NCBI GenBank assembly: GCA_965645245.1
Contig: OZ287073.1
Coordinates: forward strand, 930,001 to 994,000
From: Massalongia carnosa
Taxonomy: Eukaryota
Direction of reading: 5' to 3'
Length of the DNA: 64,000 bases
Positions 11,151 through 39,400 of this stretch are shown here, in pieces (within the stretch, counting starts at the first letter, position 1; each line of letters opens with the position of its first letter). The notes beneath the pieces were generated by a model. It worked only from the letters and a program-made list of their open reading frames with translations, did not search any database and was not told the DNA's origin. Both the position numbers and the translations under genes were made by a program.

Positions 11151-11194
11151 GTACGATTGATTCATAGACGCACACTACCCAGTTTATCCTCCTT

Positions 11195-14100: not shown

Positions 14101-16431
14101 GCCATGTGGTAAAATTTGATGAAAATTTAAAAGGTGGCAGCGTTGATTTAAACTTGCGGAAGCAGACACCCAACGTGCTACCAGAAAGACGGCCAGTAGG
14201 AAGACCACAAAAGACAAAAGAAACGAAAATCAGCGAACCTGCCAAATTAGTAGAAAGATTTTCGCATGTGGAGGTTCCTAGTCAACAGAATCAAACTCAT
14301 GACCAACCAAACCCGAAAGATGATGTCACTCAAAACGTACCACCAATCCCAACTTCCGAAGAGTCGCCCATAGCGAATGATTCAATCCCAGCCGCAGCTG
14401 TGCCTAAGGCTAGCACTAGCATATTCTCTCATGTTGCGATCCCGAAGCGAAAGCGATCTGATGAAGACTTAGTTCCCGAAGAACCGGCTTTCAAAATACC
14501 GCGCGCTTTTCTAGCGCTGTTCGCCGACGATAATAACGAGGATGAAGATGGCTATCTCAAATTCGAATCTGCCCTATCGGCTGGTGCTTCTTCATTTGAA
14601 AGAAACATACCCGAGCCTAAGTCTTACAAAGAAGCAGTAAATGACCCGGTGTGGGGGGAACTATGGAAAGAAGCAGTGAACACCGAGATCAAGGCGCTCA
14701 TCAGTAATAAGACTTGGAAAGAAGTTGTTCCACCTCCCAAAACGAACATCGTCACCTGCAAATGGGTGTTTAAAGTAAAAACCAACCTCGATGGTTCATT
14801 GGAGAAGTTCAAAGCAAGATTAGTCGCCCGTGGGTTTACTCAAAAATACGGCATCGACTATGAGGACACTTTCGCCCCCACGGTAAGATCGGATACCCTA
14901 CGTGCAGTGCTTGCCATAGTAGCGATGGAAAACCTGGAATGTCATCAAGTGGACGTGAATAACGCATTTACCCAATCAACCTTGAAAGATGTCATTTACA
15001 TGACCGCACCAGAAGGAGTAAACGTTGCCCCTGGTAGAGTTCTTCAGATTCTGCAAAGTCTATACGGTTTAAAGCAGTCCGCCAGAGAATGGAATAGCCG
15101 CTGTACAAATGAGCTGACCAAACTAGGCTTCATTCAATGCTCATCTGACCCATGCCTATTCACTCATCCTAAAAAGGGAATCATTATATTCATGCACGTA
15201 GATGACCTGGTGATCGCCTCCAAAATGATGAAAGAGATTATTTAGTTCAAGAAAGAGTTCAATGCTGCCGTTAGCATCAAGGACCTAGGAGAAGTGTCGA
15301 AGGTTCTGGGCATACGAGTAACCAGAGATCGGAAAAATCGAATACTTCGAATGGACCAGACGCATTATCTCAAAGATGTGATGGAGAGAACACATATGAG
15401 CGCTGACAAACATAGGCCTACCGAAATTCCAATGAACGGCTATGATTCATTGCGACCGGCTGGAAAAGATGATAAGCGCATAGATCAAAGAGAATATCAG
15501 CAAATTGTTAGAAGCCTGATGTACGCGGCAATTCATACGCGGCCAGATATAGCTTTTGCTCTTGGAAGGCTAAGCCAATATCTCAGTGATCCAGCTGCTC
15601 ATCACGGCCATGCACTAAAGACGCTGCTTAGATACGTTCGGTCCACCATTGACATCGGTATACTGTATGGGGCTGGGGGGAATCATGGCCAAGGCCTCAT
15701 TGGGTATTCCGATTCAGACTACGCAGCTGATAGGCTCGAAAGAAAATCGATCTTGGGATACGTGTACATGCTAGGGGGAGGGCCTATATCGTGGATGAGC
15801 AGAAAGCAAAAGTCGGTTGCTACGTCTACAACGGAGGCAGAATATATGGCCTTATCAACTTGTGCTAAGGAGGGTTTATGGCTCGTTCAGCTGATGAAAG
15901 ACATAGGCTTCGAGAAATATTTCAGTCATAACGTCAATATTCGTGAGAACTTGAAGCATCAAGCTGACTCCCCGATGCGGTTAAAAGGAGATAATCAAGC
16001 CGCTATCCAACTGGCAAAAGATGCTCACATTCATGATAGATCTAAGCATATCGACGTTGCCTATCATCACATTCGGGACCTGCACAAGCGAAATCGAATT
16101 CAGGTCGAGTACATACCCAGCGGAGAGATGATTGCCGACGGCCTAACCAAGCCTCTAAATAAGCCCATCTTCAATCTGTTCATTGGTCAATTGGGACTGC
16201 AAAAATGGAAAGAATGAGGTGGTATCGCACCGCAGGGGGACTGTTGAATGGCGGTTGCGATTATGGTTATAATGGCTCACTGCCTCATAACGTGGATAGC
16301 GGGTAGTCTAATCTTCTCTAGGAAGGTTTTAGGTTTAGCGTGCTTTGCCCTTTGGTGAAAAGTCTGCTCTTTTCCTTTTAGATAGCTTTATAGTCAATGC
16401 GATCACCTGCAACTAGAGTCTCCTTTTAACT
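11195..16431 (+). mobile_element. Full-length but defective Ty1/copia LTR retrotransposon
   Basis: LTRs 11195-11392 and 16242-16431, TSD TCCTT, PBS GGTTATGAGC, PPT before the 3' LTR. Gag knuckle CLICGEVGHWTEEC, GAG-pre-integrase WHRRFAH, integrase, RT (FKARLVARGF), RNase H (YSDSDYA, ADGLTKPL). Multiple stops/frameshifts; the protease active site appears deleted near 12755. Confidence 0.97.
11461..11605 (+). repeat. About 3.5 copies of a ~43-bp tandem repeat in the copia 5' leader
   Basis: CAGCACCTCGGCAGCTCCTTACGATTCC...AGGATAAAC repeated. Confidence 0.85.
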
Positions 16432-17789: not shown

Positions 17790-18980
17790 TACGCCGCGCA
17801 ACGGGTCGGGTTTCTCTACGGAGGATGACACAGGAAGTTCTGGCCGACGCTAATATGCACGCTAAATAAGCCACCTACAAGGGGCTCAGCCCTACGAAGA
17901 TAAACTCCTTTATTTACTCCATTTTTACCTTCTTATCCACCTCCTAATCAGTCTACATTGGCCCACTCCTCCTCATCTTCAGTAGGACTTCTCTTTGAAC
18001 GCAGATATCGACTGCGCCGCTCCTCAGCATCGTAAGGTCGTACCATTCCTCCTGTTCTTCCTTCTCTGTACTCGTTTCCTCCTTCAAACTCAATGACAGT
18101 CTGTATGTGACGAGGCATTCTCTCTATCCAGCTTTGTATTTGCTCCTGCGATAGCTCGTCCCAACATTCAGTCTATGCTACTTCGGCCTCCCGTCTGCTT
18201 CGTGGAGCTCCGAGGAGGGTCGTACGTCTTTTCATCCAAGGCCAGCATGGTTCAATCATATTGAGATCAGGTGAGTTGCCAGGCCACAAAAAGCGAAGCA
18301 CTCGAAAGTCCATAAACACCACATCCTGATGTTTGGAGGCATGACAAGGGGGCCTTATCTTCTTGAACCACCGTGTTTGGACAATCTTCCCTTCCGTTTC
18401 GATCTTTGCGTACATCAGTCAATATAGCCTCCTCCAATGCAGGTGTTACTTTAGAAGGTTGGCCTGAACGAGGTGCATCTTCTACATATTCCATCTTCAA
18501 GACTCGTGAGATCTCGGGATCATATCCTCTGCTTCTTGCTTTCTTCTTGATATGACTGATAGATCTCGTCGAGACTTCAGTGATTTCCTCTACTCTTTTG
18601 GCTGATACTCCATGCTCTACGAGAGTCAAGGCCTGAAGTCTTTGAGCGAGAGTCAGTTTGTTATCTTGAGGACGAGTCATGATGATGATAGCTACAAAAT
18701 ATCAACAAATCAACTATAAATTATAAATATTGAAGCATTTTATCTCTTAATGCCCGGAGAACCTTTTTTTAAAATTTTTACCACCCCCTTGTCTAGTGGC
18801 GGAAGCTAATGCAAGCTAAAATACGCTAGCCAGAACTTCCTGTGTCATCCTCCGTACTCAAAATCCAAACCCGTTTGTGGCGAACCCTATGATTTTTGGT
18901 GTCCGGGTTGAGTTTTGAAAGAAAAACCCGGTGGCGAAAAAGCAATTTTGTGGCGAAAACCCAACCCGTTGCGTAGTATA
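17790..18980. mobile_element. hAT-like MITE (~150 bp without the nested Tc1 element)
   Basis: ~24-bp imperfect TIRs (TACGCCGCGCAACGGGTCGGGTTT vs TATACTACGCAACGGGTTGGGTTT); 8-bp TSD GTTTTGCT/GTCTTGCT (one mismatch). Confidence 0.7.
17819..18854 (-). mobile_element. Internally deleted canonical Tc1/mariner element with TA TSD
   Basis: 26-bp perfect TIR CGGAGGATGACACAGGAAGTTCTGGC flanked by TA; ORF fragments with an HTH and WPGNSPDLNMIEPCW; central DDE region missing. Confidence 0.92.
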
Positions 18981-21096: not shown

Positions 21097-21194
21097 TTAA
21101 CACTAAGAAACAACGCTTGCTCTCTCGCAAGCAACCCTTTTTTTTTTCAAACAAACGACATACGGTTGATTTTCTTTGTCAAATTATCTATTTG

Positions 21195-21432
21195 TGTTGA
21201 ATATCCAACTCCTATTAGTACAATAAACACTTACGAGTTCAATGAACTAGGAAACCGTAGAAGCCGCATTAGGCCTAGTCTCAGGATAAGATAAAGATTA
21301 CCTCGCTTAACAGAAGGTGACCAGTAATAGGATAAAGATTGCTGAACAGTATTCTTCATCCTTAACATCACGGTTATACATACACTTATTATTACATAGT
21401 CATATAGCTATAGTCATATACCTATTTCAACA
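21195..21432. mobile_element. Solo LTR (238 bp), related to 23232-24766
   Basis: TGTTGAATATCC...CCTATTTCAACA; exact TSD ATTTG. Confidence 0.92.
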
Positions 21433-21490
21433 ATTTGATAACATTTATAATATTAAAGCTCGTCGTGAACGTGCTTTTTTAAGTCGAAAG

Positions 21491-21940: not shown

Positions 21941-23212
21941 ACGCAGGAGAAGATGGTCAAGCAGAGCATGGCCTTAACAAAAATTTCCACGTCTACCTGG
22001 GGAGCTTCGCTAGGGCCAGGCAAGTATACACGGCGGTGGTGCGGCCGGCCATGACATATGGTTCAATCGTCTGGCACACCCCGAAAGACGTAAATAGAAA
22101 TAAATCCATAACGTCCAAATTGGCGGTCATTCAGAAGAGATGCCTACGCACAGTCGCCGGAGCGTTCAAGGCTACCCCGATACTGGTGCTGGAGGCAGAA
22201 ACACACATAGCCCCAATAGATGTGTATTTGGATCAACTGCAGGCTAAAGCCAGATATCGACTACGAATCACGGACTCGCTAACTCCGCATGCAAGATAAT
22301 AGCTAATAAGCTACGGGAAAGAGCGGGTCGAAGAAGAACTCCGCCGCCAACACCCAGAGAACTGAAACACACATGGGACAAGGCAATGTTAAATGGAGAG
22401 GCCGCCGTCAGATTACTGCCTTCCGCGCCCCTGTGGTACGACGCCAGTCCAGAATATCACAAGGAGCTGAGTGAAGCGCGAACGGCCCAACGGGCACATC
22501 ATACGCGGCTCATGGAGCATCATATGAAAATATGGAAGTCAACATGGGCGACTTATCAAAATCACATTCCACTCCCCACCGAGGCTCAACAAGCTTCGCT
22601 TGACAAAAAGAGATTAAAAATTCCACAGCAATTTAGCAAAAGCGGAGAGTTCACTAGCAACGCAAATTCGCACGGAGAAAATCGGGCTAGCCAACTTTCT
22701 TTTCAACCGAAGGGTACCCAATGTAAACTCACCGGCGTGCATATGTGGATAGCCAAGGCAGACGGCCAAACAGTCATCATGCACTGTCAGCTGATAGACG
22801 GAAGAAATGAATTATTTAATCAAGTGAAAACTAACAATTATCGCATGATAATTGAAAATTCCGCAAAATTGAAAAAGCTGACAGCATGGCTAATGCGGGC
22901 AGAATATACTAAATAAGTTTTCATTTGCAGCGACCATGCTGTACGGATAATTCCCGTCGACACAGCATTTGAAATGTTTGACTTCTTCCCCTTTTCTTTT
23001 GTTCTTTTCCTTTTTCTTTCAAGGACCTCACAGATACACGTTATTAGGTACACTGAGGGGTCATGGGGATCCCGCAGGCGATAATACTGGTTACTAAGTT
23101 TTTATTCCTTAAAAGGTTTTCCTATGTACAATAGTCATATAGAACCACGCCCGCATGGGCCGGCCTTCGGCCGGTGACATATAGGTGTAAGAATTTATCA
23201 TCATCATCATCA
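21941..23212 (+). mobile_element. 5'-truncated Tad1-like LINE (third copy), frameshifted
   Basis: Homology to the ORF2 C-terminus (ARQVYTAVVRPAMTYG, AFKATPI); conserved 3' hairpin; (ATC)n tail; 14-bp TSD TCCATTATCCAGTA. Confidence 0.92.
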
Positions 23213-23231
23213 TCCATTATCCAGTACATAT

Positions 23232-24766
23232 TGTTGAATATCCAACTCCTACCAGTACAGTGAACACCTACCAGTTCAATGAACATAGCACCTACGACTG
23301 CCCAGACACGCGGGTGACAAAATAAATTGCAACGTGTAAGCGAATTTACCCCCCCTTTTTTATTCAAATTTTCATCTCATCATCAACCATCATCTGCATA
23401 GCTGATAAAATTCATCTAAATTACATGAGATCAATAACCAGTCATCGCCCCCTTTGCATCTTTCACCTCTTCAATCTTTTGGGCATGGATAACACCCTTT
23501 CATTGATAAATTCTTGACTGACTCGAGCCCATCCCTCCCTAATCAGCTGCTCCAAACTTGCATCGTCCCAATGAGGAAATTTACGAACATGCTGCTTTGC
23601 GGGCTGCCAGCAATTTTCAATGGGAGCTAGATCAGGAGATGAAGCACAATTGAAATAGTGCTCTAAATCGTGATCTAACTTCCACTTTTTGACCGCGTTT
23701 CGTGTCTTGCCCGTGCCATGACCAAAGTCTCCATCTTCTTCAAGTACGAAGTCATCTCCACGCTCCAACCAGGGCTTGACGACGGGATCAAGAATAGCGT
23801 CAATATACACCTGATGAGTCATTTTTCCATTGCTATTGCTGGGCACATCGTAGAAGTAGATATCCGACTTGAAATTGTAACCAACTGCTGCCCAGCAGTG
23901 CTTTCTTTTACGATCTTTCTCAGGTGGTGCATCACGATGCTGAATACAATCCCAACGATATCTTGTTCCGGGCTTACGAATGATTCGTAACTGTCCTTCA
24001 GGCCCATAGCCAAAATGAATCTCATCGCTGAATCGTACGCGATGCCAGTCTTCGGACCGAGGATATTTATTTAACATAACTGTAGCAAATTCTTCTCTTC
24101 TTTCTTCTGATGCCATTGCCAGCCACCCTTTGACACAGGCTAGACATTTGTGATAATTCAAGGCAGCTGTAAGAGTTCTCTTCATTGTACGTCCCATCAC
24201 GTCGGCCCCAATCTCCTGTGCTAAAGCATCCCATGTGTAGCGTTTTCCTTCCAATTGTAGATCTTGATCCTGCAGAATGTGATCTGCCTCCTTCAGCTGA
24301 TCATCACTAATCTTTCGCTTTCGACCCCGAGTCTCAACGAGAGAAGAAGCTCCGCTTTTGATGATGTTATAGCCCGCGCGCTCGGCCACGCCAAATTCCT
24401 GAAAAATGGCCCGTGGATCGAATGGAATTGCATGTGAGATGAGAAATTGATAAGCTCCTTGAACTTTGGCCTTTGTGGGAGTATCATAATGAGGCTTTTT
24501 GGGTCGAGACATTGATGATGAGATAAAAAGTTGAAAAAAAGGAGGGTGTTTTGATGGGGCATTCAGGGGTAAATTCGCTTACACGTTGCAATTTATTTTG
24601 TCACCCGCGTGCCAGAGCAACCACCTACGGAAACCGTAGATGCCGTATTAGGCTTAGCCTAGAGATTAGATAAGATCGGCTCGGATAATCTTATCACCTC
24701 GCTTAGCAGAGGGTCATACATATCAAAGCCATACCATATAGCCATAGTCATATACCTATTTCAACA
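23232..24766. mobile_element. Solo LTR interrupted by a DNA transposon
   Basis: TGTTGAATATCC...CCTATTTCAACA; TSD CATAT; similar to 21195-21432. Confidence 0.9.
23307..24611 (-). mobile_element. Tc1/IS630-type DNA transposon with 46-bp perfect TIRs and a 5-bp TSD (CCAGA)
   Basis: TIR CACGCGGGTGACAAAATAAATTGCAACGTGTAAGCGAATTTACCCC at both ends; transposase 24512-23463 with FSDE, EEDGD and SPDLAPIENCW (DD38E); 1-bp frameshift near the C-terminus. Confidence 0.95.
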
Positions 24767-27067
24767 CATATCATCATTATCATTACATCGTTTCATCAGA
24801 TAAAGCCACAGATAATTTAGAAGAAATAATGCAAAGAATTGTACAGGAGGCAAAAGCTAGTAAATCAGGAACATTAGCAACATTGTCTCGTTCTAAACGA
24901 GTAAATTCTCAAACGACAGATACAGCGAGTTCATCACCAACGAAGAAAAAAAAACAACAACGACTGTCATGTTACACGGTCAAATGACTTTCACGATTGA
25001 TGATGTACCTGCTCCTCCGCATGTCAAATATGCTGAAAATATGAGCGCCTTGTTTGATGATTAGGAGAACAAACATCTGCGCAAGTGCATGTGAAAGGTG
25101 TCAGCGTATCTGTAAGTTATTGAGGAACGTTATACAAAGGTCAATATGTCAGAAACATGGACTCTCATCAAAGGATATTACAGCAATTGAAAGATATGTT
25201 TTGACAAGCTCTTTTAAAAAGGACACTTTTAAAACGAAACAAAGTGCATCGTGCAGGAACGACGCAGTTACGCAAATGAAGAGGATCTTTGGAATGCACG
25301 CATGCGATGTGCGAAAAAGACGGGAAATATGAAACACATGAGTCAAACAGAACTGTTAAGAGTTATTCGTAAAAGACGAGCAAGCATCAACGCGCGAGAT
25401 GCAATAATGACTACTCTGGATGACTAGGATATGCAACAAACCTAGATATGCAACAGCACTAGTAGGTGTTTATATCTGATGTTTATCCGATGTGTTTATC
25501 CTGAAGCATTCCTACCAAAATTTATACTGTACCGTCTCAACAGCCCTTACAAATCAGCCAATTGACCTATACCTACTCTCCAACCCTCAACCCTGGCCAT
25601 TGAAGCTATAATTGGTCTCAGCGCCTGGCCTAGCCATCCCTCCGTTACCAAAATATCATGCAAGCTGTTGAGGAAGACCCATTAGAAGGGGAATCAGATA
25701 CAGAGGTCATCCCAAGGCGTGAGCGCATGGAGCTTGCTCTGATCTCCTTTGCCAAAGCTATAAAGCGGTGGGATGAATATGAACTCCAGCCTGAAATAAA
25801 GCCTAAGCAAGAGAAGCCTTCATTCCGCCAATATGCCATCAAATACAATGTTTGCCATACAACATTATATCGACGATACAAAGGAGAAACATTACCTCAT
25901 CACAAAGCTCATCAAGCCCAACAACGCCTCACTTTCATTATGGAGGAATGCTTAGTAAACTGGATCGAATTATTGGCCAAATGGGGCTTCCCTCCAATGA
26001 TTTATCGAATCAAGTTACAAGTAGAAGAGATTCTCCAAAAAAAGGAAATCATACCCCATTGGGATGTCACTGGGTGGAGAAGTTCTTGAATCGACATCAT
26101 TCGTTAAAATCTCGCTTTTGCACTCCGTTAGATAAAGAGCGCATCAATGCAGTCAATTACGAAACAATCAATCATTGGTTTAAGCTCTTTTCGGACACAA
26201 TGAAGCAATACAACATTGAAAAAAGATACGTATATAATATCGATGAGAAGGGCTTTGCAATAGGCCAAGCAGGCAAGAAGAAAGTAGTGGTTTCAAAGGC
26301 AAACCTCAATGCATACATGTGTCAGAATGGGAGCCGGGAATAGGTGTCTCTTCTTGAATGTATCTCTGCAGATGGAGCACTTCTTCCTGCTTTCGTCATC
26401 TTTAAAGCAAAGACTCAAAGGAAGGCCTGGATGAATGAATTGGAGCGAGGTAATAACATCGCTATCATTGAGAAGGGCTGGACCAATAATACACTCGCTT
26501 TCGAATGGTTTAAACGTGTATTTGATCCATATTCGAAGAAGCGACAACAAGGCGAATATCGCTTGCTTATCCTCGACGGGCATGCGTCTCATATTACGTC
26601 GGAAGTTATCCAATTCTGTATCAATGAGAAGATTATTCTTGCTTGCCTTCCAGCTCACACGACTCACGTCCTCCAGCCGTTAGATGTGGGTTTCTTCCAG
26701 CCACTGGGGAGTCTCTATCGGACCAAGCTACTGCGTCTGATAAAGTGGGATAGCAGTGCTAACGTGGATAAGGTCGATTTCATTGATTTATATCAACGAG
26801 CTCGGAGTGAGACAGCCAAACTCACTACTATTCTCAGTGCTTGGCAGAAAGCACTTCTATTTCCTCTGGATCCAGAGAGTCTTTTGAAGACATTGCTATA
26901 GCCGAAAGATGTGATAAACACTGTTACTCTAAGGCCGTATACGCCACCAGAAGTATACTTCCGATCGTCGGATGGCGTCGCTATATCCGCTCCTACCAAG
27001 ACTCCAAGAAATGCAGCTGAATTCGATGAAATCGTCCACAAAGCTATTGATGGGAAGGCTACCCAGC

Positions 27068-27439
27068 TGTCACGGTGCGAGGTCAGGTAGAAATTCAGAT
27101 TGTGCAAACGTATTACTTGATTGTCTAGCTAGGTGGACAAGACGTTCGACAAGGAGAAAAGAAACAGAAAATCCAACGTGGGCGAGTATAAGACTCTGGC
27201 GAACGGAACCAGTCCCAATCCAGCCGTTGATCCAATTTCCCAAGTCCCTGGCATGAAACTATCGCTATGACACTATTGACAGTCCGAACACTTACCTTCA
27301 GCCGGAACACTTACCTTTGCCCTGACTAAACCGGATTAAGCTTAGTTCCTTTCGGATCGGCTAGCCGGCTAGTGCTTCGTTCAAGCAGCTAAGGTTGGTT
27401 CAATGAACTAACTGGCAGGTGCCCAGTCACTCCATGACA
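27068..27439. mobile_element. Solo LTR (372 bp) inside the pogo transposase
   Basis: TGTCACGG...CCATGACA; TSD CCAGC. Confidence 0.9.
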
Positions 27440-27676
27440 CCAGCAAGAGATTATGAAGCTAGGCAAGGCTGGATCAAAAGCGTACGTCGAGAAAGTGTTA
27501 TTAGAGACTAAAAATACTGAATTGTTGAAGAATCAACAGTGTAAAAAGGAGAAGGCCAAACGTTCAAATCAACAGCTCGGTAAAGGACGTATAATGAATC
27601 ATGACGTCCTCGAAGAACGGGAGATGAAGAAGCACACAGAGGAGCAGAAGAAGCGTGCAGATAAACAAGAGAAGGA

Positions 27677-27999
27677 TGTTGGAACTGTGACTGCAACAGG
27701 CGGAATGGTAGCACTGGGTAATTGATATGACTAGTTCGACAAACGAGTTCTTGCACATGCAAAACAAACTGGGAGAAACGATTGACTTTTTACAACTACG
27801 TAAGGTAAAACTGCTCCTATTTATGCCCGTCCACCAGCGATTCCAGAAGCTTCCATTTCCATCTCATCGGTTCCTTCTTCCGATGCGCTTTCTGACTTCA
27901 TACAAATTTGCCACCGCCACAAGCCTTTCCTTGCCGAGTGTAGATGCAAATTGCTTTGTCAGCTGGTTTCGGTACTTGGCATCGGTTGCCGTTTTAACA
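27677..27999. mobile_element. Solo LTR (323 bp) inside the pogo transposase
   Basis: TGTTGGAAC...GTTTTAACA; TSD AAGGA; removal restores KQEK|EFWEAW. Confidence 0.88.
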
Positions 28000-29283
28000 A
28001 AGGAGTTCTGGGAGGCTTGGAAATCTGTGTGGAGCCTCATTGCAGAGCCCAAACCTCAAACTCTAAAAAACAAGACAAATAAGAAGGCACAGGCTATCCA
28101 GCCAATTTCCATCGATTTAGACCCTTCAACACTTGCTCCGCCAGAGCCCTGCTTAGAGAATGAGGATCCGGAGTTCGCTATACAGACTGAGGTACAGGAT
28201 GTTAGGGGTAAAGGGATGAGAGGTAAAAGAGGCAGGAAGTCAGCCAAGGCCCGAAGTGAGGGAATACATAAAATCAAGGACGCTGTGACGGTATTGCCTG
28301 TATATACGGCTTCTGGGAGGATAGTGAGACCTCCTAGAAGGCGAGATTGACTGCTTTATATACTACATCATGTATAATATAGCACTGAGCCGGCCTAGCG
28401 GGCGGGGCCCAAGCACCAAAGCTTTCTAACCATTAATTCGGCCGTTGCTTGCAATTATCAGTGCTCTGAAGATACTGCAGCCAAATTCGATAAGGAAGAC
28501 TGGCAATGCTAATCAGAAGATTATCGGTCAAACTTCGGGTAAACCCCTACTAGTGCTGTTGCATATCTAGGTTTGTTGCATATCTAGGTTTGTTGCATAT
28601 CTTGGTTTGTTGCATATCCCAGTCATCCCGAGTAAAGAGCTCGTTCCTAACGAGGAGTTTATCAAGAACTTCTCTTACAAGAAGACGGGTAAGCAATATA
28701 TTTTGACTAAACCGGGTGATATTGCGAAGCAATATCGCAAGTTGATGGGCAAACCTCAACATTGGGATGAGGATCAGGATCAGGACAATTAAATCGAGCT
28801 TGTTATAAACATCAAATTAACTATGTTATCGCATTGTGTTGTGCAACATTTTGCATGAATAATGCGCTATATAAATCAAGTGCGCTCACATATAGATAAC
28901 TCGTTGAAAACAAGCTCGTATTAAACGAGGACATATATTTAAATTAAAGATCTACGCCCATATGGCCTACATGATTACAGGTTAGTTTACGAACGGGTAC
29001 CCCACCGTGCCGCTATAAATGATCGATGACCGAAATTTAAGTGATATCCTCATGATATGTGCGAAGATTCATGATTCAAATCTTGCGGAGTCCTATTAGT
29101 TACTATGCGAATATTTTATTTTTGGTTCGTTTTAAACGAGCTCGTAGAAAATTCTTTGAGACTGTCAATTTTCATTGTGAAGTCCTCCGTGCTCGTAAAT
29201 TGCGGGCTCTAAAGACAAATGTGAAATCAGTTTCAAGATCAAGAGTTGACAGTCTCAAAAAAGACCTCTAGTCCCTTGAAGTT

Positions 29284-29555
29284 TGTTAAATGGTGAGGCT
29301 ACCATCGGTTAAATGGTGAGGCTACCATCGGTTAGATGGTTAGGCTACCATCCATCGTGAGTCCCACGGGTGCCTGCCAGGCATCTATAAGAGGTGCCTA
29401 ATAGGAGGTTATGGAGGTGCCTAACAGGCAGCTATGGGAGGCCTACAGCATTACTGTATGTGACTGCTATAAAAGCAGGTAGATAGCCCACATAGATAAT
29501 TACCTTCAATGACAATCATGCTATTATACCTACACGTGAATTTTACTATTCATCA
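29284..29555. mobile_element. Solo LTR (272 bp) with 3 x 23-bp internal tandem repeat
   Basis: TGTTAAATGGT...ACTATTCATCA; TSD AAGTT; unit GTTAAATGGTGAGGCTACCATCG. Confidence 0.75.
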
Positions 29556-30245
29556 AAGTTTAGGTAGGATGAAATCGTGGCTTAAGATGAAGATACGGGG
29601 ATTACGAGCTCGTTTTCAACGACAATCATGCGATTTTGGCTCGATTTTCAAGGACATAAAGCTATCAATGTCTCACAGATGTGATGCACAATTTATATCG
29701 CTTTTATTACTGCGCGTTAACAACGAGTACGTTGTAAATAATTGTTCAATGGTTGTTGTTCTTGGTAGGGTAATCGATGACAAATCGAGATGTGGGCGCT
29801 AGGCTCAACATGGACGCGCTAAGTGAGGTGGGGATGAAGGTGCGAGTTCAATTCCTGCCAATGGCGACTTGAAGATCGACCATGGCTGGCTGTATCTAGC
29901 TAAGACAATACAATTAAGATACTAGAGAATTATAAGGTGCTGCAGAGTGATAGGTAAGATATGCTAAGTGTCCAGTAAGGTGTCTATGACAGGGTGATTG
30001 CCCCTGCCATGATTCCATAAGCGCCCGAATGGTGTGCTTGGATAATTTCCCGTTTAGGGCACCAGCTGAAGGCGGGGCACAAACCCTACATACCTACTCC
30101 ATATTAGTACAGAGTACTCCGTATCATGAACGATAATCTTCCTTCTCTTCCGTTCATTATGGACGACCTTTGCTATTTCTTTGCTTCCTCTGGTCGTTGT
30201 CTTTCAGGATTGCCATAACGGAATACAGAAGACTACACAATCATC

Positions 30246-31278
30246 ATGGCAGACCCATTTACAATCTCCGCGGGAACCGTCTTTTCCGCTATCAGCACGA
30301 CTTTCAAACTTGCGGAGTTCTGCCTTGCTCTCAAGGAAGTGGACTCCGAAAATCTTGTCTTCCTTACTCTGATTGCCCGTGTGCGAAAAGACCTGGACGA
30401 AGCATTTCGAGAACGTGGAGAGAAAACAGCCATTTGGGAGTCATTGCCGTACGGTAAGCGAGCCTGGATCGATGGCACAATTCTTGACACTCGACGCGCG
30501 CTTAACGATATTGGATCGTATGTCGAAGATGCAAGAATTGATCTGGAGCAAGGAAGGGCTGTTACTCTGAAACATCGATTTGAGTGGGTATTGACGAACC
30601 ACCAAAAGTTCATCACACGAGAAATGTAGGTTATCTTTTGTGTCTTTTGTTCTCTTGTCTGAACTGATAGGCCCTTCAAGGGCGCTTGCAACATGTCATC
30701 AGTCCTTGCTTGCTGCTATTAATGCGATGCATTGTCTCCAGGTGGTTCAAACTCCAATGCCGCCACCGGCCTATAACGTGACCACATCTCCAGAACTTGA
30801 CATCATTGGAAATGCTCCGATGTTGATGCGTCCTTCTCGACGGCGGCCAAAGGGGAACTCCCGAAATACCTCCCAGACTTCAGTCATTACTTTCCCCGAC
30901 AATACCGATGGGCTTAAAGCTTCGCCCATCTCCATCTCCCCCTACTTAGACTCATATGGTTCCAAACAAAGATCTGAGGTGCACATAGGCAATCTCCATG
31001 ATGCGCAATCTACCTTATCGTTATCGGAAACCAATCTCGAGTCACCAACAAGCTACTCTTGGCCACTTCTGCCCGAGATTGAGCAAAGCCCGTTTTTAAT
31101 AAAGGACTCTACTTGGACTGTCGAACAGAATGAACTTGAAGTGTTGTCTGCGGCTGCCGATGCTTTGGATGCTCAAGGAGTCGGATACACTAACATATCA
31201 TGTATGGCTGACTCGCTCCGTCGGACAGCAACCCAGGAACGACTGCGAAGAGCAAGAGCTAGGTTCGGAGCCAAATAG
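30246..31278 (+). CDS. Hypothetical protein with a fungal HeLo/SesA-like N-terminal helical domain; intron 30626-30680
   Basis: MADPFTISAGTVFSAISTTFKL start resembles fungal STAND N-terminal domains; GTAGGT...AAG intron joins ORFs 30246-30629 and 30640-31278 in frame. Confidence 0.7.
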
Positions 31279-34200
31279 ATCTTAATCAGTCGCAGCTGCG
31301 GAAAATACTCTAACTTTTTCTCACGATTTTGCGCCATTGGATCGTCATTGGTAAAAGAATTTTTTACAAGCATACAGGTCAATCCACCAAAATCATGATA
31401 CTTTAACTTATCTATACTTAGCTCAAAAAGCCGATCTATGTCATACGTTACTTCTTCGTGAAGAATGGTCTGAGGAAGCGAGCGTGCATATGCATATGAA
31501 TGTCTATTTGGGAATCTGGATCAACACCAATTTATTGAAGCTTATTATACATAAATGGGGTATAGGACCCACGTCACTCTCTGATGCCCTTGAATCATCA
31601 CACGAAAGAAAAGTCTAGTTTGGCCTGCGTGATCTACTCCATCAAGGCTTCAAGCGACTGGCCGTTCACAACTCAAACATCGCATAATCCCTTGCAGAGA
31701 CTACATTCGCCAGCAATGGTAGCTTCGGAAGGAATCTTAAGGAGGAGCCAATCATCAAAGCTTTGGTTTTTCTGGAACAATATCAGCCGAGCTCACATTC
31801 CAGAATCAAAGCACAGAAGCGCCATACTATTCCCATTCTCATCGCTTTGGGAAGCGCGTCCCCACGCAAGGTCCCAATCCTGAAGGTATATAGCCATGGC
31901 TTGGCCTTGATTATGGTTGGCGCCACGCCTACCGGCGAAGAAATTGCTGCTAGGATCGATATAATACTCGATTTCCGGGATTTCTATTTGCTCGTTGTGA
32001 GGGGGAGGAGGAGGAGGACCAGTCTTTGATTTCGGGCCTCTGATCAAAGTTAGGATTGAGACGATAAGTTCACCTTCCAAGCATGTTACGATGATGATGA
32101 GACGGTAGGTAGACTTACGCCATGAGAATAGACTCGATTTAAGATACAAAGTCTTGGTTGGCTTTTACCCCGCCGAGACGTTAGGTGATGTAACTGACAA
32201 CGAACCGAGATGACAATGGACGAGGGTGGCAGGGATGGAAACTATAGGCAACCAAGCTGGTGAAGGGACAACTTGAGTACGAGCGTCGATGGGAGGATAC
32301 AGATGAGGAGGGAATGCGCGGTGGATCCAAAATGCTAAGAGAAGCGGGAAGAAATGAATGCCGGCCTCGGCACTTGGTCGGGTTGGATGGAATCAGATGC
32401 CCCTATTTAGGAACGATGGGGGGACAAATACGAGGATGCGGCCGCGTCAGTCTTTGCTTTTCCAGCCTTGATATAAATTAGTAGACTTGGAGAACAGTTT
32501 GGATGCATGAACAGGAGGAGGGGATGAGCGTCTATGTATATATGATGGTTCATCTTCACCCACATGGCTTGTGTGCGTAAAAGGAGGTGAGAGCATGCAC
32601 GAGGCATGACAACCGTGCAACGCAAGCCCAAGCTATTCTACGACCATTTGCCTAGTTACTGGTTCCTTTCCTTAACATTAAAACTGTTGACGTGGTATCA
32701 TGATAGTACCGCGATAACGCTAAAGTTCACTCGTTACATTGAAACTCACCTCCCATGATTGGTCTGACACCCATGGCTTTCTTCCACACTATTTTTTCCC
32801 CTCCGCCGCCTCTTTGGTCACTCCTACCTCTCCACTCCCCACAGCGGCTAATAAATAAGCAAGGATTAGCTAAGGGTGGCTCAATCCTAAAAAGCGATTG
32901 GCTTCCACCTCTCACTGTCTTTCCCTAAATATCTCGCTAGGGCAAGGCAGCTCGACTTTCAGCGAAAGACTGCAAGGTCAAGGAAACCTCCGTAATTGTA
33001 CCCTGACGTATATAGTCCCTATCAGGTGCATCAACGCCTCTTGTTTCGGTTTTCGTTCTAGTGTGCTTCTAGCGCTGCTGAACTTGACTTCCTCTTTTTT
33101 GGCTGCACGTATTGAATACCTTTAGTCAAGTATCGGGTGTTTGATTGGATAGTCTGAGAATCAATGATGCTGTCTAGGGCTAGACTAACCAAGACCTTCG
33201 TCACCACAAGCCCGGGCGGCCACTGTTGGCCGTTTCAACAGCTTTCGAGCAACCACTTTAAATTTATTGCGGATTATGTTAACAGCAAGCAACGCGCGTT
33301 CATTTTAGGCGCTGAGTGCATAGATTGGGTATTTTCAGCTCTTCCTTGATTCTATGATGTGCAAGTTATCTGACCTACTCATTTGCATCAAAATCTGACA
33401 AGGGCGACAGGGGCATTCGTGGAGTGATTCGCTTGTGATTGGCTAGCCTTGTAGGACCCGGAAAAAGCCAATTGCCGTTGGCCAACCCTTTCGTCCGTTA
33501 ACACATTACTCTATCTGGTATCGTCGTTTTTTCTGTATCAAATCCCCAAAGGGACAAAGACCAAAACCTGATGGTTAGGCTGGTCGGATATCTCCACCAG
33601 CCAACAAAGGTTAAAGACTCAGGACGTATTGGCCATCCAGGTGAAGAAGAAGAGGGTGTCGAAGCTTGCATCACCGATCAGGAAAGCACATCTGTTTTCA
33701 TCCTTGTAGTAACTACTGGGTTTTAAAAGGGATCTAACTAATACTGGGACACCTTTTCTCACCACCTATCTTGACACCTTTTCATTAACACCCTTCGAGT
33801 AAGCTAATCAGATCGAGTAAACAAGCCCCTTGGGCACAGAAACTGATGAAATTCACATGCGTTTTAGACGGCCGTTCGATGCTTTCTCAATGATCATCTC
33901 CATTGAATCAAGCATTCGAATGATGTCATCGTATTTACACTGAAAGCCCTGAAACAAATAAACCGCATCTAGTCAAACAAACCGCATCTAGTCAATTCAA
34001 CCGGTCGAATGATTTCACCAGACACCTCCTCTTCACCTGGTGACCGTTCATCATCCCTTCTCCTCCCTCCACCACCTCATCCCCCTTCTCTGGCCCTCAC
34101 TCCGGCTCGCGTCCACGGCCCCACGTCCACGCCAAAACCCCATTCGATGCCTTCCCCACATGTTCTCCAATTAACTCTTGATGACATGCAGATGTAAGTA

Positions 34201-34292
34201 AAAAAAAATTCCGAAGTTCGTTCGGAGCGGATAAAGCATGCAACTATTTATAGTTGCTCGATCGGGTTAGCTTACCCGAGGGGGTGAAGTGG

Positions 34293-35620
34293 CACGCGGG
34301 GGACAAAAAAAAAACTACACCAAAATTTGACCGGGCTCAACTCCCCACCAAAACACAAGCAATTTACATACGATTTTGATGGGATAATTATCATTATTAT
34401 GAATTCTAAACATATCGAGACTCCTACCAAAGCTAAAATTCAGGGAGCCGTTGAATTTTGCGAAAAGCAAGGCATTTCTTATCACAAAGAGGATGTTTTT
34501 CGCACATTTGATGTGGAACGTACGAGGGGCTATGCATACCTGCGTGAAGGAGCCTCATCACGCCGTCATCATAATAATTCCGATGTTTCTGAAGCTCGTG
34601 GGCGTCACAAAATTGTTACGCCTAAATTGATTAGAGAAATGGAACGGCTATTGGAAGAAGAAGGTATGGAGGCGCGCGCTCTTACATGGGAGCAATTGGG
34701 CTTCGAAGTAGGCCTAGACTGCAGTGGCAAAACCATTCAACGAATCATGGGCACCATGGATTATCACAAATGCATTGCGTGCAGAAAGGGATGGGTGAAC
34801 GAGAAGACAAGAAAGCTTCGTATGAAGTGGTCAGATGCTATGCTTTCTAGATATCCAAATGCAGAAGACTGGAAACAAGTTCGATTTAGTGACGAAGTGC
34901 ACTTTGGATGGGGACCTCAGGGCAAATTACGCATCATACGAAGATTAGGTGAACGTTATTGTCATGATTGTATTCAAGAAGCAGATGAACCAGACGAGGC
35001 CGTCAAGAAGAGACATCACTGTTGGGCTGCTGCAGGTCATGACTTCAAGTCAGATATCTACTTTTACAGAGTTCCTGGAAACTCCAATGGAAAGATGAGT
35101 CAACGAGTCTATATCGACTCTATATTGGAGCCTATTGTGAAGCCCTGGATTGAAGCAAAACACGATTTCGTCTTAGAAGAAGACGGTGATTCTGGACATG
35201 GACCAGGCAAATCAAACATTGTACGCACTTGGAAGCAGAACAACGATCTGAAGCACTATTTCAACTGTCCATGTTCACCTGATTTGGCCCCCATAGAAAA
35301 TTGCTGGCAGGCCCCGAAGCAATATTTAAAAAAATATCCTCATTGGGATGATGATACGACCAAGGGGCTAATTTATGAGGGGTGGGCGAACGTTTCCCAG
35401 GCATTTATCAATGAACGGGTGTCTACTATGCCAGATAGATTGAGAGCTGTTTTGGATGGTGAGGGTAAAATGACTGGTTATTGAATAGATTGAATGAATT
35501 GGATGACTGGTTGTTGAAATGGTGATTATCCCATCAAAATTGTATGGAAATTGCTTGTGTTTTGATGGGGGGTTGAACCCGGTTAAATTTTGGTGTAGTT
35601 TTTTTTTTGTCCCCCGCGTG
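34293..35620 (+). mobile_element. Apparently intact Tc1/IS630-type DNA transposon with ~100-bp TIRs and a 5-bp TSD (AGTGG)
   Basis: TIR CACGCGGGGGACAAAAAAAAAACTACACC...; AGTGG at 34288-34292 and 35621-35625. Confidence 0.95.
34399..35484 (+). CDS. DD37E Tc1/IS630-like transposase, uninterrupted
   Basis: RFSDEVHF, FVLEEDGDSGH and SPDLAPIENCW; 37 residues between the second D and E; clearly homologous to 23463-24512. Confidence 0.93.
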   Translation: MNSKHIETPTKAKIQGAVEFCEKQGISYHKEDVFRTFDVERTRGYAYLREGASSRRHHNNSDVSEARGRHKIVTPKLIREMERLLEEEGMEARALTWEQLGFEVGLDCSGKTIQRIMGTMDYHKCIACRKGWVNEKTRKLRMKWSDAMLSRYPNAEDWKQVRFSDEVHFGWGPQGKLRIIRRLGERYCHDCIQEADEPDEAVKKRHHCWAAAGHDFKSDIYFYRVPGNSNGKMSQRVYIDSILEPIVKPWIEAKHDFVLEEDGDSGHGPGKSNIVRTWKQNNDLKHYFNCPCSPDLAPIENCWQAPKQYLKKYPHWDDDTTKGLIYEGWANVSQAFINERVSTMPDRLRAVLDGEGKMTGY

Positions 35621-36333
35621 AGTGGAAAGGGCATTAGTAACTAGTCCAGAGCTCTTTCACCGATTTCATGATCGGTCGGGATTTTCTATCATCTACCTTT
35701 TCATTGGTAGCCTACATCTTTTCCAAGGCTAAGGCACATAAGCCAACAAACCATAACCACGTATCTAGAAAAGGCAAGACGCTAGAACAATTGGGCCTGG
35801 CCTTCCATTGGCAATCCATTACAGAGGCCTTCCATCATCGTGCTTTAAGTTTCCATTGGGGAGATGGGACGAGAATAAAGCCTCAACTACTGCACGATAT
35901 CGAGCAGATGCTCCTTCCCCCTTCCCGCCCTTCTCCCCCCTCGCTCCCCCCTACAAATCCATGCATGACCGACCCCTTGGGCCTAAACCCCTGCATCTGG
36001 AGGCAAGGTGCAGGCTTCCACCTTCAAATCCTCTCACAGCAATAATCCCTGAGGATTGAATCACCAGGTCAACCACTTGGCCCCCCCGCTAGGAATTATT
36101 TCCACACACAATACCATTAGTACCTGCCTACATGGCAGGCAAACAGGAAGGCTCCGTTTCAACCCAACCATCTAACATCAGTCTTCACGTCCACTGAGTC
36201 ATTTTTATGTTCAATTCCTCCAGGCCCCCCTGATCTCTCCACCCAACCCACACCCAACAACCCACACCCAAATTCACACCCACCCAACCCACACCCACAC
36301 AAATTCTCAGGGCTGCCAAAAATGTAAAAAGAG

Positions 36334-36452
36334 ACATACAACAACCGGGATTCGCTGGTGGTCACCCACCCAACTACTAATCGATCGATCTGAGTCTTCA
36401 GTATGGCAGAGCGGACGGGATACCCTGTTTTCCTCAGTCTGTGGTTGTATGT
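36334..36452 (-). rRNA. Dispersed 5S rRNA gene
   Basis: 119 nt ACATACAACCACAG...CCCGTCCGCTC...TTAGTAGTTGGGTGGGTGACCACCAGCGAATCCC...TTGTATGT, followed by an oligo-T terminator; TA-rich box about 25 nt upstream. Confidence 0.96.
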
Positions 36453-39400
36453 GGAATTGTTCGAAGATAATTTGATATATCAAGAGGCGACGTGATCTAC
36501 CAGGATTAAAGGAGGAGGATTGAATGAGAACGGATTTAACAAGGATACGGAGATAAGAAATGCTTAACTTTATGTACACAACTTTAGGTCGAATTATAAT
36601 TAGCACGTCATTTCAAAAATACCTCCCCGCATACCTAGTTTTAGTGTAGCTACAGGTAGTTTTCAGCAGTCATCGTAAATCAAGTCCCGCCGCTTCTTTA
36701 TGAAAATTCTATTATCACTTTACCATCTTCATCTACTTACATATTTACATTATAATTAGATACGTGCAGAAGTATTTTTAAAGTGACGCAATCCGACCTG
36801 TAGTGTCAGACCCGCTCCGAAGTCCTATGCCAAAGAAATGTCCTTCCTGAACAACTCCGATGACGTATTTCAGGTTCTACTTACAAAGTGAGACGCCCTC
36901 ATGTCAAGAATAATACAACCTCCAATAATTACATAGCAGGATTTTGAAAATTTGACCACGAAACTTAGAAAATATACTACATATATATACTATATTTCTT
37001 ACTATAAATAACCCCACACGAGCCACCGGGTTGGGGATTAAGTCCTCCAACACAATAACTCACGCTGTCTCTCTCCATGAAGCTGCCGATGAGATAGCAC
37101 TATTCAACAACCTACCAGATAAACGATGCGTTGGTTTTACAAGACATCATGAGCGGCATTTATCAAATAAAAATCCGAGTTGGCACCTTAGAGACATCAG
37201 CTCACAATCTCAAACAGCGATTATAACACACGCTGTCAGTTATTCAACCCAGTAATAACCAACTCGGGCACTCAAGTTCAAATTCTTAAAACACCTGATG
37301 GTTTATTTCTGGATAAATTTCCCCTCACCTCCCTTCAGCACTCTTCCTGCACAGGTGAGAGTGCTTTTACTCGACTTATTTATATTTAACTATTACCTTT
37401 TAAATTGCTTCGGTAACTTTCTGTTTACGACGATACGAGCTTCCTGTCACTGGGACTCACAATTGATTATGGCTGGATGACTTCTATATGAAGCTTTACT
37501 AACTTGTGCTGTGTGTCTATAGATGATACGTTAGCGATAATAAAGCATAGCTAAGCTTAGGCTAATGTATTTTAAGCAACAAAATTAATTCCTATTCTTT
37601 CTTGCTCATGTTTCTCCCTCGCGTCATCGTCATGCGCTCCCCTCAGCTCTTCATCGGGACTAGAGATGTTCTACCATGAAATCTGCTTGAATTGACCATT
37701 TAGTAATACTTTTCGCACAAGGTTGAAAAAATATTTGCACAAAAATGGGAGAGTGGAAGAATCAAGCCAAGTTCTCCAAATAATAACAGCTAGGCTGCCA
37801 ACCTCTCCATTATATCCCTTGTGTCCATGGCAGCTTCTAATCAACATTTGAGAAACCCGATATATGGAGGCATGCAAGTGCAGCCCAAAGCATCAGAGTG
37901 ACATTCTGCAGGAGAGCTCCAATAGCGTGACCAGCCCTTAGCTCAAGAGAGCATAACTCGGCCCAACCAGCTAATATATTTCCAAGTTAGGAACACTTCA
38001 AGACTTTTATAAAACTCATGGCCATCCCGACAACACCACCAGGTATGCGTAGATCCCTGACAAATTTTCTGACTTTGACTAGAGTTTTGGCTTCCCTTTT
38101 ACCACTGTTAAGAACGGAAATCTGAACAAGGGATGGAGAATGCGTCTACCTTGATCCCCACTCCTGCTTGGGGAGGTATCATCATGCTTTGGATTGGCCT
38201 CCCGAGAACTTGAGAGCACGCCGTGGTTCTCCTGCTGGCTTGGATCTTCTTGCCCAACAAGGAATGCTTTATATGCATCCTTCTCGTCCAGGTATGTGGC
38301 CATGACAAGATCTGTCTTAGATTGGTTGACAACTTGATTATTAAAAGCACAGACCTGAAAACGCTCCGGATCTTGACTACCGCGAAGGACAAAATGGGGT
38401 TGATTGGTATTGTTTTTTTTAGAAGCAAGGCAGCCGCCTTCTTTGCTAAATCTACCATACGAAGGCTTTTGAGGAGTATAGGAACCGCAAGGTAGTGCGC
38501 TTAGGGTATCGCTAGGGTTTGAAGCCCTGATCCATGGTAATCATTAGCCAAACCAACAAAATTCCTGTATATGGGCCTAGGAAGTATCAAACGTTGAATG
38601 AAATGAGAACAAACGGCATTGTCATTGATTTTCGCTGCGTCTCGAAGGGAAGTGTCAAAGTTGACAGCTAAAATAAATATTGAAATCAATGGCTCAGGAC
38701 CCGAAGGAGCAAGCAAGCTTCAATGTGGTATCAAAGTACCGCATCAGCTTCCGAGCGAAGTTAGGGTTGATCTTATATACAAAAATGCATGAAGAGACTT
38801 GACGAGAAGACTCCCTTTCCGCTCAACTGAGTCTTCCAAGATGGTTGCCTTGCATTGGTCCAAGACCTGCATGATCAGGAGCACTAAAAATAAATAGTTG
38901 AGGCGACATGGATGAGTGAACAACTGCTGCGGAGTCAAACATATAGCGCGAACGTCCATACCTCTATTTGATGGCTCTCTTGACTTCAGTGGATCATTAA
39001 GAGAACCTTGAAGTGTAGGTACAAGGCTTTTGTGTTAGGTTGTTCATAAACCTCATTGGCCAGCCATGGAGGGCTTGGGCATTTCCCGTGGGACCTTCAC
39101 TGCTCCATATGCAGGTTCCTGGCCCACATTCATGACTACACAGCCTATCAACTCGCCTCGAACCAGCACCAAGGAAAGCGGATCGACGTCGTAAAACGCC
39201 AACCTCGTGCATCCCAGGGTCGTCCAGAACCTGGACTGTTACTGGAGGGCTTAAAAATGCCACGCGATGGCAAAATGTGGTACCTTTAGGAATAGATGAT
39301 GATTGGTTTTGATACACGCTAAAGCATGCAAAGGCCCCATCATTTGTTCTCCTACCCGTACTAATAAATATATTTCCCGGCATCAGCCATCATCACATAC

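Follow-up and report, generated by a model that had tools for sequence, protein, structure and literature searches.

Transposons of the IS630/Tc1/mariner (ITm) superfamily are described as bound to one dinucleotide: they 'generate 2 bp TSDs of TA in general' (PMC10045372, cited like all sources below for the passages available to us), where TSD denotes target-site duplication, and the rule is repeated in PMC13728883 and PMC2817418. In PMC7325037, TA is given as a common feature of the group and the fungal element impala is listed as DD37E. Bacterial IS630 duplicates TA (PMC7325037, PMC10045372), as do pogo-type elements of Sclerotinia (PMC4188875); Zator, related to ISAzo13, makes 3-bp duplications (PMC10045372); and the available passages of fungal and cross-kingdom Tc1/IS630 surveys (PMC5751038, PMC11544213) hold no 5-bp duplication for the group. 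Here we describe two transposons, elements A and B, in a 64,000-nt stretch of the Massalongia carnosa genome (GCA_965645245.1, contig OZ287073.1, positions 930,001–994,000 of the forward strand; this whole stretch is called the window), which have transposases of this superfamily and are flanked by 5-bp duplications without TA. We consider it very probable, at roughly 0.88, that A and B are autonomous ITm cut-and-paste transposons belonging to a clade, spread across Pezizomycotina, that makes a 5-bp non-TA duplication throughout. Their insertion geometry differs from that of every described relative that we checked.

Element A (34293–35620; 1,328 bp) is of Tc1/IS630 type and has an exact AGTGG on both flanks, the copies at 34288–34292 and 35621–35625 being identical by direct read and by script re-count. 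With a slash marking each end of the element, the junctions are GGTGA AGTGG/CACGCGGGGGACAAAAA ... TTTTTGTCCCCCGCGTG/AGTGG AAAGG, and neither contains TA on direct reading of the sequence. A repeat search and end-to-end alignment delimited terminal inverted repeats (TIRs) of 103 nt, 92% complementary, of which the left (34293–34395, plus strand) begins CACGCGGGGGACAAAA and the right (35518–35620, minus strand) ends GTCCCCCGCGTG; the termini of the element thus read CACGCGGGGGACAAAA... at the left and ...TTTTGTCCCCCGCGTG at the right. The sole uninterrupted open reading frame (ORF) between the arms occupies 34399–35484 of the plus strand, start codon ATG and stop included, and encodes an intact, intron-less transposase of 361 aa, recognised in the ORF list and by Pfam. 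Its catalytic residues, with the aspartates assigned by alignment to the catalytic domain of SB100X, a Sleeping Beauty (SB) transposase, are D165 (34891–34893), D262 (35182–35184) and E300 (35296–35298); each of the three is either invariant or conserved to 90% or more across an alignment of 27 sequences, comprising A, B and 25 homologues from a protein search. A hand count puts 37 residues between D262 (in LEED) and E300 (in PIEN), hence DD37E, and the SPDLxPIEN motif is present. The first-pass annotation of this DNA had proposed precisely such a transposase between TIRs of ~100 bp, with exact AGTGG flanks and no TA at the junctions, and on all these points it was borne out.

Pfam detects DDE_3 in the protein of A (E 8.5e-8; 32.6 bits, over a cut-off of 28.6) and, N-terminally, the helix-turn-helix (HTH) family HTH_Tnp_Tc3_2 (E 1.1e-5; 26 bits, short of a cut-off of 31.5), the latter being precomputed for many relatives as well. 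A protein atlas gave cluster labels for DDE_3 and HTH and no further information. Of the features that mark the ITm superfamily, A therefore has the N-terminal HTH region, the single ORF between TIRs and a DDE catalytic domain of Tc1/mariner type, and it lacks the TA target with its 2-bp TA duplication.

Element B, about 10 kb away in the window, was found by an end-motif search in which two mismatches were permitted. It occupies 23307–24611 (minus strand; 1,305 bp), has the same kind of ends as A (CACGCGGGTGAC...GTCACCCGCGTG, the inverted ends matching over ~46 nt) and lies between exact copies of CCAGA at 23302–23306 and 24612–24616, confirmed by script re-count. It is a diverged relative of A, with 67% DNA identity over 626 nt (blastn) and 53% protein identity. 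Its transposase gene is on the minus strand, with the ATG at 24512, and the D-to-E spacing is 38 by hand count on the family alignment. Relative to other copies, B appears to lack one base near 23469, which would cut off the last ~12 residues: contigs of three sequencing runs (X5, X4 and X2) have an extra letter behind the T at 23469, and the alignment with P0044, an intact relative of B, agrees with such a loss.

Two diverged relatives that each carry an exact 5-bp repeat already make a chance match unlikely, and replication across the family excludes it. A protein-guided scan of metagenome contigs with the 27-sequence alignment gave 79 related loci, 39 of them with an inverted-end pair; these and A and B made 41 items, which were reduced to 31 elements by removing six without family ends, two duplicate records and two missing one flank. 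Each end was located independently, by alignment to seven end sequences from the family itself. An exact 5-bp duplication abuts the ends in 20 of the 31 distinct elements, and two more match at four of five bases, both mismatches being transitions. In a shuffled control that paired left flanks with the right flanks of other elements, exact 5-bp matches occurred in 7 of 930 pairings, at which rate 20 of 31 has a probability of ~3e-35 (binomial tail). Since the 20 pentamers are all different, as are their surroundings, the insertions are independent and the repeats are target duplications, not parts of the elements. The first-pass annotation had itself proposed tabulating flanking duplications across copies and had named TA duplications or constant pentamers as findings that would overturn it; on the metagenome contigs, TA on both sides was found in none of the 31 elements and the pentamers proved variable.

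The same counts dispose of the idea that A is an ordinary TA-duplicating Tc1 element with its true ends further out, the pentamers being then a part of the element or a coincidence. Such a reading would agree with the TA rule of the superfamily (PMC10045372), and on gapless extension the inverted repeat did overrun the chosen end by a few bases in some loci; however, the extra inverted bases are explained in every over-extended case by a partly palindromic pentamer, and in A the inverted repeat stops at CAC/GTG, with outer flanks that are not complementary. With 20 distinct pentamers in 20 exact cases and no pair of flanking TAs, the family count refutes it and we give it practically no credence. 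TA is, moreover, what we see in two outgroup elements and two other transposons of the window. In the window, the junctions of a Tc1-like element at 17819–18854 are TA/CGGAGGATGAC...GTCATCCTCCG/TA and those of a pogo-like element at 25414–28632 are TA/CTCTGGATGAC...GTCATCCCGAG/TA, so that both internal controls cited in the first-pass annotation hold when their two junctions are read. The outgroup elements, from the same metagenome scan, are L073 (TA/CAGTGGGG...CCCCACTG/TA) and L069 (TA/CACTGCTGG...CCAGCAGTG/TA). The protein of L073 is a canonical Tc1 transposase, its named relatives being 'Transposable element Tc1 transposase' of bee, Tc1-like proteins of fishes and Rhizophagus. As for the Tc1-like element at 17819–18854, it is internally deleted and consists of 28-nt perfect inverted ends and pieces of a broken DDE_3 gene, among them the motif NSPDLNMIEPCW.

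Among the other elements of the count, L060 is flanked by an exact repeat of 6 bp, and repeats of 7 bp, likewise exact, flank L016 and L070. The latter is a 621-bp element with a fragmentary match, and its two flanks are in addition inverted repeats of one another. Six have no duplication, and in one of these, L001, the flanks match at five of six bases with a C/T transition, or over 3 bp; this is the only 3-bp match of the kind made by Zator among the 31 elements. It could be argued from L060, L016, L070 and L001 that the stagger is flexible between 5 and 7 bp or that its length depends on the subgroup, 5 bp being merely the commonest outcome, the more so as L016 forms with L018 a separate, long-branched subgroup with CAAGGYCTGG ends. 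Against this, 20 exact and two near-exact 5-bp cases face three or four longer ones, every major subclade contains 5-bp cases (also right beside L060), and the match of L070 is fragmentary, so that we think a flexible or subgroup-dependent length unlikely. The family's copies vary in their ends as well, which start with CACG, CAAG or CTCG and are constant only for C at position 1 and G at position 4. Stops are frequent in several of the metagenome copies. In two, L008 (2398–3689) and L012 (2398–3689), comparison with L001 (2374–3665) gave C>T or G>A in 153 of 156 and 172 of 175 differences respectively, a pattern that reads as the signature of repeat-induced point mutation (RIP).

A 5-bp duplication next to CAC ends, as found in A and B, is also what Transib/RAG-like transposons would show, and the first-pass annotation had pointed to the combination as their signature. 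Both features are indeed present in A, but the likeness is coincidental, since CAC is found in some subgroups only, with CAA or CTC in others, and since the enzyme resembles SB and Mos1. A search of solved structures with the alignment profile gave one significant match, the SB100X catalytic domain (PDB 5cr4; E 1.2e-17), nothing else below E 0.5, and no mariner or RAG1 chain at E≤1; no Pfam family other than DDE_3 and the Tc3-type HTH matched the protein of A at E≤1. An AlphaFold model of this protein, built from the 27-sequence alignment (mean predicted local distance difference test score, pLDDT, 75.9), has helical bundles at residues 10–48 and 75–128. Foldseek matched the model best to the SB catalytic domain (template modelling score 0.74 on the target, 24% identity), then to chains of the Mos1 transpososome and to Metnase, and no RAG1 chain was among the matches listed. 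On its sequence and predicted fold, the transposase is thus placed among the IS630/Tc1/mariner enzymes, closest to Tc1. That the family should belong to Transib/RAG, or to another superfamily with 5-bp duplications, and merely carry a Tc1-like motif is refuted by the protein fold and seems to us vanishingly improbable.

In the model, residues 173–195, between the first two catalytic residues, have a pLDDT below 50 and a Cys/His pattern (RYCxDCIQ...HCW) that the family retains only in part. The corresponding segment of Mos1 and SB is, we presume, the clamp loop that takes part in dimer contacts, and by this analogy residues 173–195 may be one place in which to seek the cause of an altered stagger. 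The CxxC...HC motif itself was considered and set aside, as it is not conserved, B and its relatives having no first Cys.

The elements with 5-bp duplications group together in phylogenetic trees built by quick search from read-through translations, with X at stops, and with support from the Shimodaira–Hasegawa-like approximate likelihood ratio test (SH-aLRT). In a tree of 74 rows, all 20 lie within one group of 68 rows (SH-aLRT 96), in every major subclade. In a second tree of 54 rows, to which seven named or Tc1-like proteins and two bacterial loci were added and from which most rows without a known duplication state were left out, all 20 lie within a clade of 39 rows (SH-aLRT 97). Outside this come L067 and then L069, which has TA, and L079, all within a clade of 42 rows (SH-aLRT 96); none of the seven added proteins is among the 42 rows, and canonical Tc1 lies further out. 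For L067 and L079, a usable end pair was not found or an end was at the contig edge. The order of these nearest outgroups is provisional, since the searches were quick, the support is of one type and some rows are long or compositionally odd. On the simplest reading, insertion geometry changed once, in the stem lineage of the clade. The direction of this change, from an ancestral TA to 5 bp, we infer from the two TA outgroup elements, L069 and L073, together with the TA rule of the superfamily (PMC10045372). Of the first-pass proposal of a fungal lineage that lost TA and uses a 5-bp staggered cut, the 5-bp non-TA duplication in 20 insertions and the supported clade stand as observations, and the loss of TA and the stagger stand as probable interpretations of them. 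Near-identical Tc1/IS630-like proteins occur in L075, a metagenome contig, and L081, a short scaffold of 1,119 bp from a bacterial assembly titled Flavobacterium poyangense (branch lengths 0.025 and 0.056; SH-aLRT 100). L075 has inverted ends of 205 nt, at which no recognisable duplication was found.

The target is non-random, with C dominating the first two positions of the duplication. Among the 20 exact duplications, C occupies position 1 in 14 (p ~2e-5) and position 2 in 15 (p ~2e-6), A or T fills position 3 in 14, and G stands at position 4 in 10 and at position 5 in 10; pentamers that begin with CC or end with GG make up 14 of the 20, versus 7 of 40 for control pentamers from a distance of 12 nt. 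With elements oriented by their transposase, the three bases 3' of the right duplication are [C/G]TA in 9 of 20 and NTA in 10 of 20 (T at +2 in 13, A at +3 in 15), and the mirror position on the left, read from the printed left flanks, shows this motif in only 2 of 20. There may thus be an orientation-specific target motif with TA one base away from the duplication; this asymmetry between right and left, which comes from 20 sites after repeated inspection of the data, is a lead and not a result.

Staggered attack on the two target strands followed by gap repair is the standard explanation of target duplications, and it suggests how the insertions described here could arise. By homology with Tc1/mariner, the transposase, with its HTH and RNase-H-like DDE_3 domains, would act as a dimer that binds to the long inverted ends, cuts the element out and transfers the element's 3' ends to the target DNA. 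Strand transfer at points 5 bp apart on a target other than TA, and repair of the resulting gaps, would then leave a variable 5-bp duplication. What the sequences themselves show is two joints 5 bp apart at a site other than TA; cut-and-paste chemistry, with a 5-bp staggered attack as the cause of the duplications, is the probable mode of movement, and the family may still be active.

Several points weigh against this picture. The mechanism is read from sequence. As many as 11 of the 31 elements have no exact 5-bp duplication, six of them having none at all, and the three with 6 or 7 bp may mean that the stagger is not strictly fixed or that ends were misplaced by 1–2 nt. The HTH match of A is under the Pfam cut-off. 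Both trees are quick searches supported by SH-aLRT only, with several rows long or RIP-altered and many of them read-through, and the direction from TA to 5 bp depends on just two outgroup elements with readable duplications. Finally, a clean allelic empty site for A was not obtained: in four runs, covering 22000–37500, there was no joint across A among 15 of 69 joints.

Beside A, the Tc1 family, represented by SB100X, is similar in its size of ~1.3 kb, inverted ends, single ORF with HTH and DDE_3, and SPDLxPIEN motif. Unlike Tc1 with its TA, the family of A makes a variable 5-bp duplication, and unlike strict Tc1 (DD34E), the spacing is 37 in A and 38 in B; compared with the canonical Tc1 L073, identity is ~25–28% and the family of A forms a separate supported clade. 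The fungal Tc1-like element impala of Fusarium oxysporum duplicates TA. It shares DD37E with A (PMC7325037), and the ends of A resemble, by eye only, the end motif of the Fusarium element mimp (PMC6131394) in having CA, then a G-rich and then an A-rich stretch; neither impala nor Fusarium occurs in the source-given names of relatives among the matches listed. Zator, known here by description only, shares with the family of A the wider ITm grouping and a non-TA duplication. With Transib/RAG1, the family of A shares the 5-bp duplication, and A and B share the CAC ends; unlike in Transib/RAG1, CAC is not conserved in the family, and the protein family and fold are unrelated. The NCBIfam profile of bacterial IS630 aligns nearly full length with the family, over 267 of 299 positions in A (E 7.6e-9, 35 bits) and 283 of 299 in P0044 (E 3.3e-16, 60 bits), far below the 100-bit cut-off in both. 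The nearest prokaryotic loci, 10 in number, are 25–39% identical over parts of the protein, and these distant and partial matches give no evidence of a recent bacterial source.

Relatives of the transposase are numerous, with 422 proteins at E≤1e-3 in the protein search, and all those that are named come from Pezizomycotina (Bimuria, Clathrospora, Pyrenophora tritici-repentis, Ophiobolus, Macroventuria, Rutstroemia, Botrytis and Colletotrichum). A lineage so abundant in sequenced genomes has probably been met by curators, and it could be real and yet already catalogued, as a Mariner/Tc1 entry in Repbase or a Dfam/RepeatMasker subclass with 5 bp noted, in which case A and B would simply be new members. 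RepeatMasker labels such as TcMar-Sagan and TcMar-Ant1 do occur in fungal genome papers. On the other side, the proteins are named by their sources only as 'hypothetical protein', 'HMG box protein' or 'Tc1-like transposase DDE domain', and TA is given as the rule for the group in the available passages of PMC10045372, PMC7325037 and PMC13728883. A search of the full text of that part of PubMed Central which is searchable (~1.7 million articles are not, and supplements, Repbase and Dfam lie outside it) turned up no Tc1/IS630-like transposon described with a 5-bp duplication, and none of six end-sequence variants matched a paper. Prior cataloguing strikes us as a serious prospect, a little short of an even one. 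We see an even chance that this is the first lineage of IS630/Tc1/mariner type with a fixed 5-bp non-TA duplication and a C-rich motif of its own, possibly read in one orientation, with a single origin in the stem of a clade that today extends over Dothideomycetes, Leotiomycetes, Sordariomycetes and lichen-associated fungi, beside sister lineages that duplicate TA.

Within the source organism or its close kin, the families of A and B are both multi-copy, since the protein of A is 99% identical to P0001, a cluster at 90% identity with 42 member sequences, P0044 likewise represents a 90%-identity cluster with 43 members, and contigs of runs X2 and X4 break within the inverted ends. The element bins in X2 reach ~35–40 times the flank depth, a summed contig depth that is a sign of multiple copies and not a copy number. 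One run with about half of the window's words is labelled lichen metagenome. In X1, a run labelled lichen metagenome, the alignment of a 2,688-nt contig stops at 34287, immediately before the left AGTGG, and the rows listed leave 688 further letters of the contig unaccounted for; this stop would fit an empty site at A and is merely suggestive.

Element B lies in repeated sequence (20033–21432/22639–24766), of which there is a second copy in the window and there are further copies without B in the runs. These B-free copies differ by small indels at the insertion site and are not clean empty sites. At the site of B itself, contigs in all four runs skip from 23304 to 24622 with 12 other letters between and a single CAGAG; they are other, diverged copies of the host repeat and give weak support for an empty site, because their sides are short (19–42 nt) and sequence is replaced rather than cut out. 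The paralogue in the window, at 21183–21451, lacks ~30 bp around the site and is uninformative in this respect. For the pogo-like element at 25414–28632, contigs in three runs skip from 25409 to 28634 with GCC between, which indicates that a copy or allele without this element exists, the junction being 3 nt off a simple empty site.

The window also holds what look like elements of another class. A direct repeat of 330 bp with 100% identity (58805–59134 and 63671–64000) flanks an open frame of 1,384 aa (59153–63307), and 58805–64000 looks like a young long terminal repeat (LTR) retrotransposon that reaches the end of the window. A repeat of ~200 bp occurs three times with 92–96% identity (67–266, 11192–11393 and 16242–16431); the last two copies bracket long open frames at 12960–16217, and 11192–16431 may be another LTR element.

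A TA target and its 2-bp duplication serve to define and to detect IS630/Tc1/mariner elements (the rule in PMC10045372 and PMC2817418). A fungal clade that is large and seems to have expanded recently does not follow this rule, so TA-based pipelines will overlook its members or set their boundaries wrongly. Should Repbase or Dfam prove to record the 5-bp duplication, the value of the present case drops to that of a well-documented example. A single transposase fold can, on this evidence, accommodate a shift in strand-transfer spacing from 2 bp to 5 bp, and TA-duplicating sister lineages are at hand for comparison. If our interpretation is true, the transposase would be a candidate for a compact, single-protein, intron-less tool of Tc1 type without the TA constraint and with another target preference, the TA hallmark of the superfamily would be evolvable, and the sister lineages would constitute a natural experiment on transpososome geometry and stagger.

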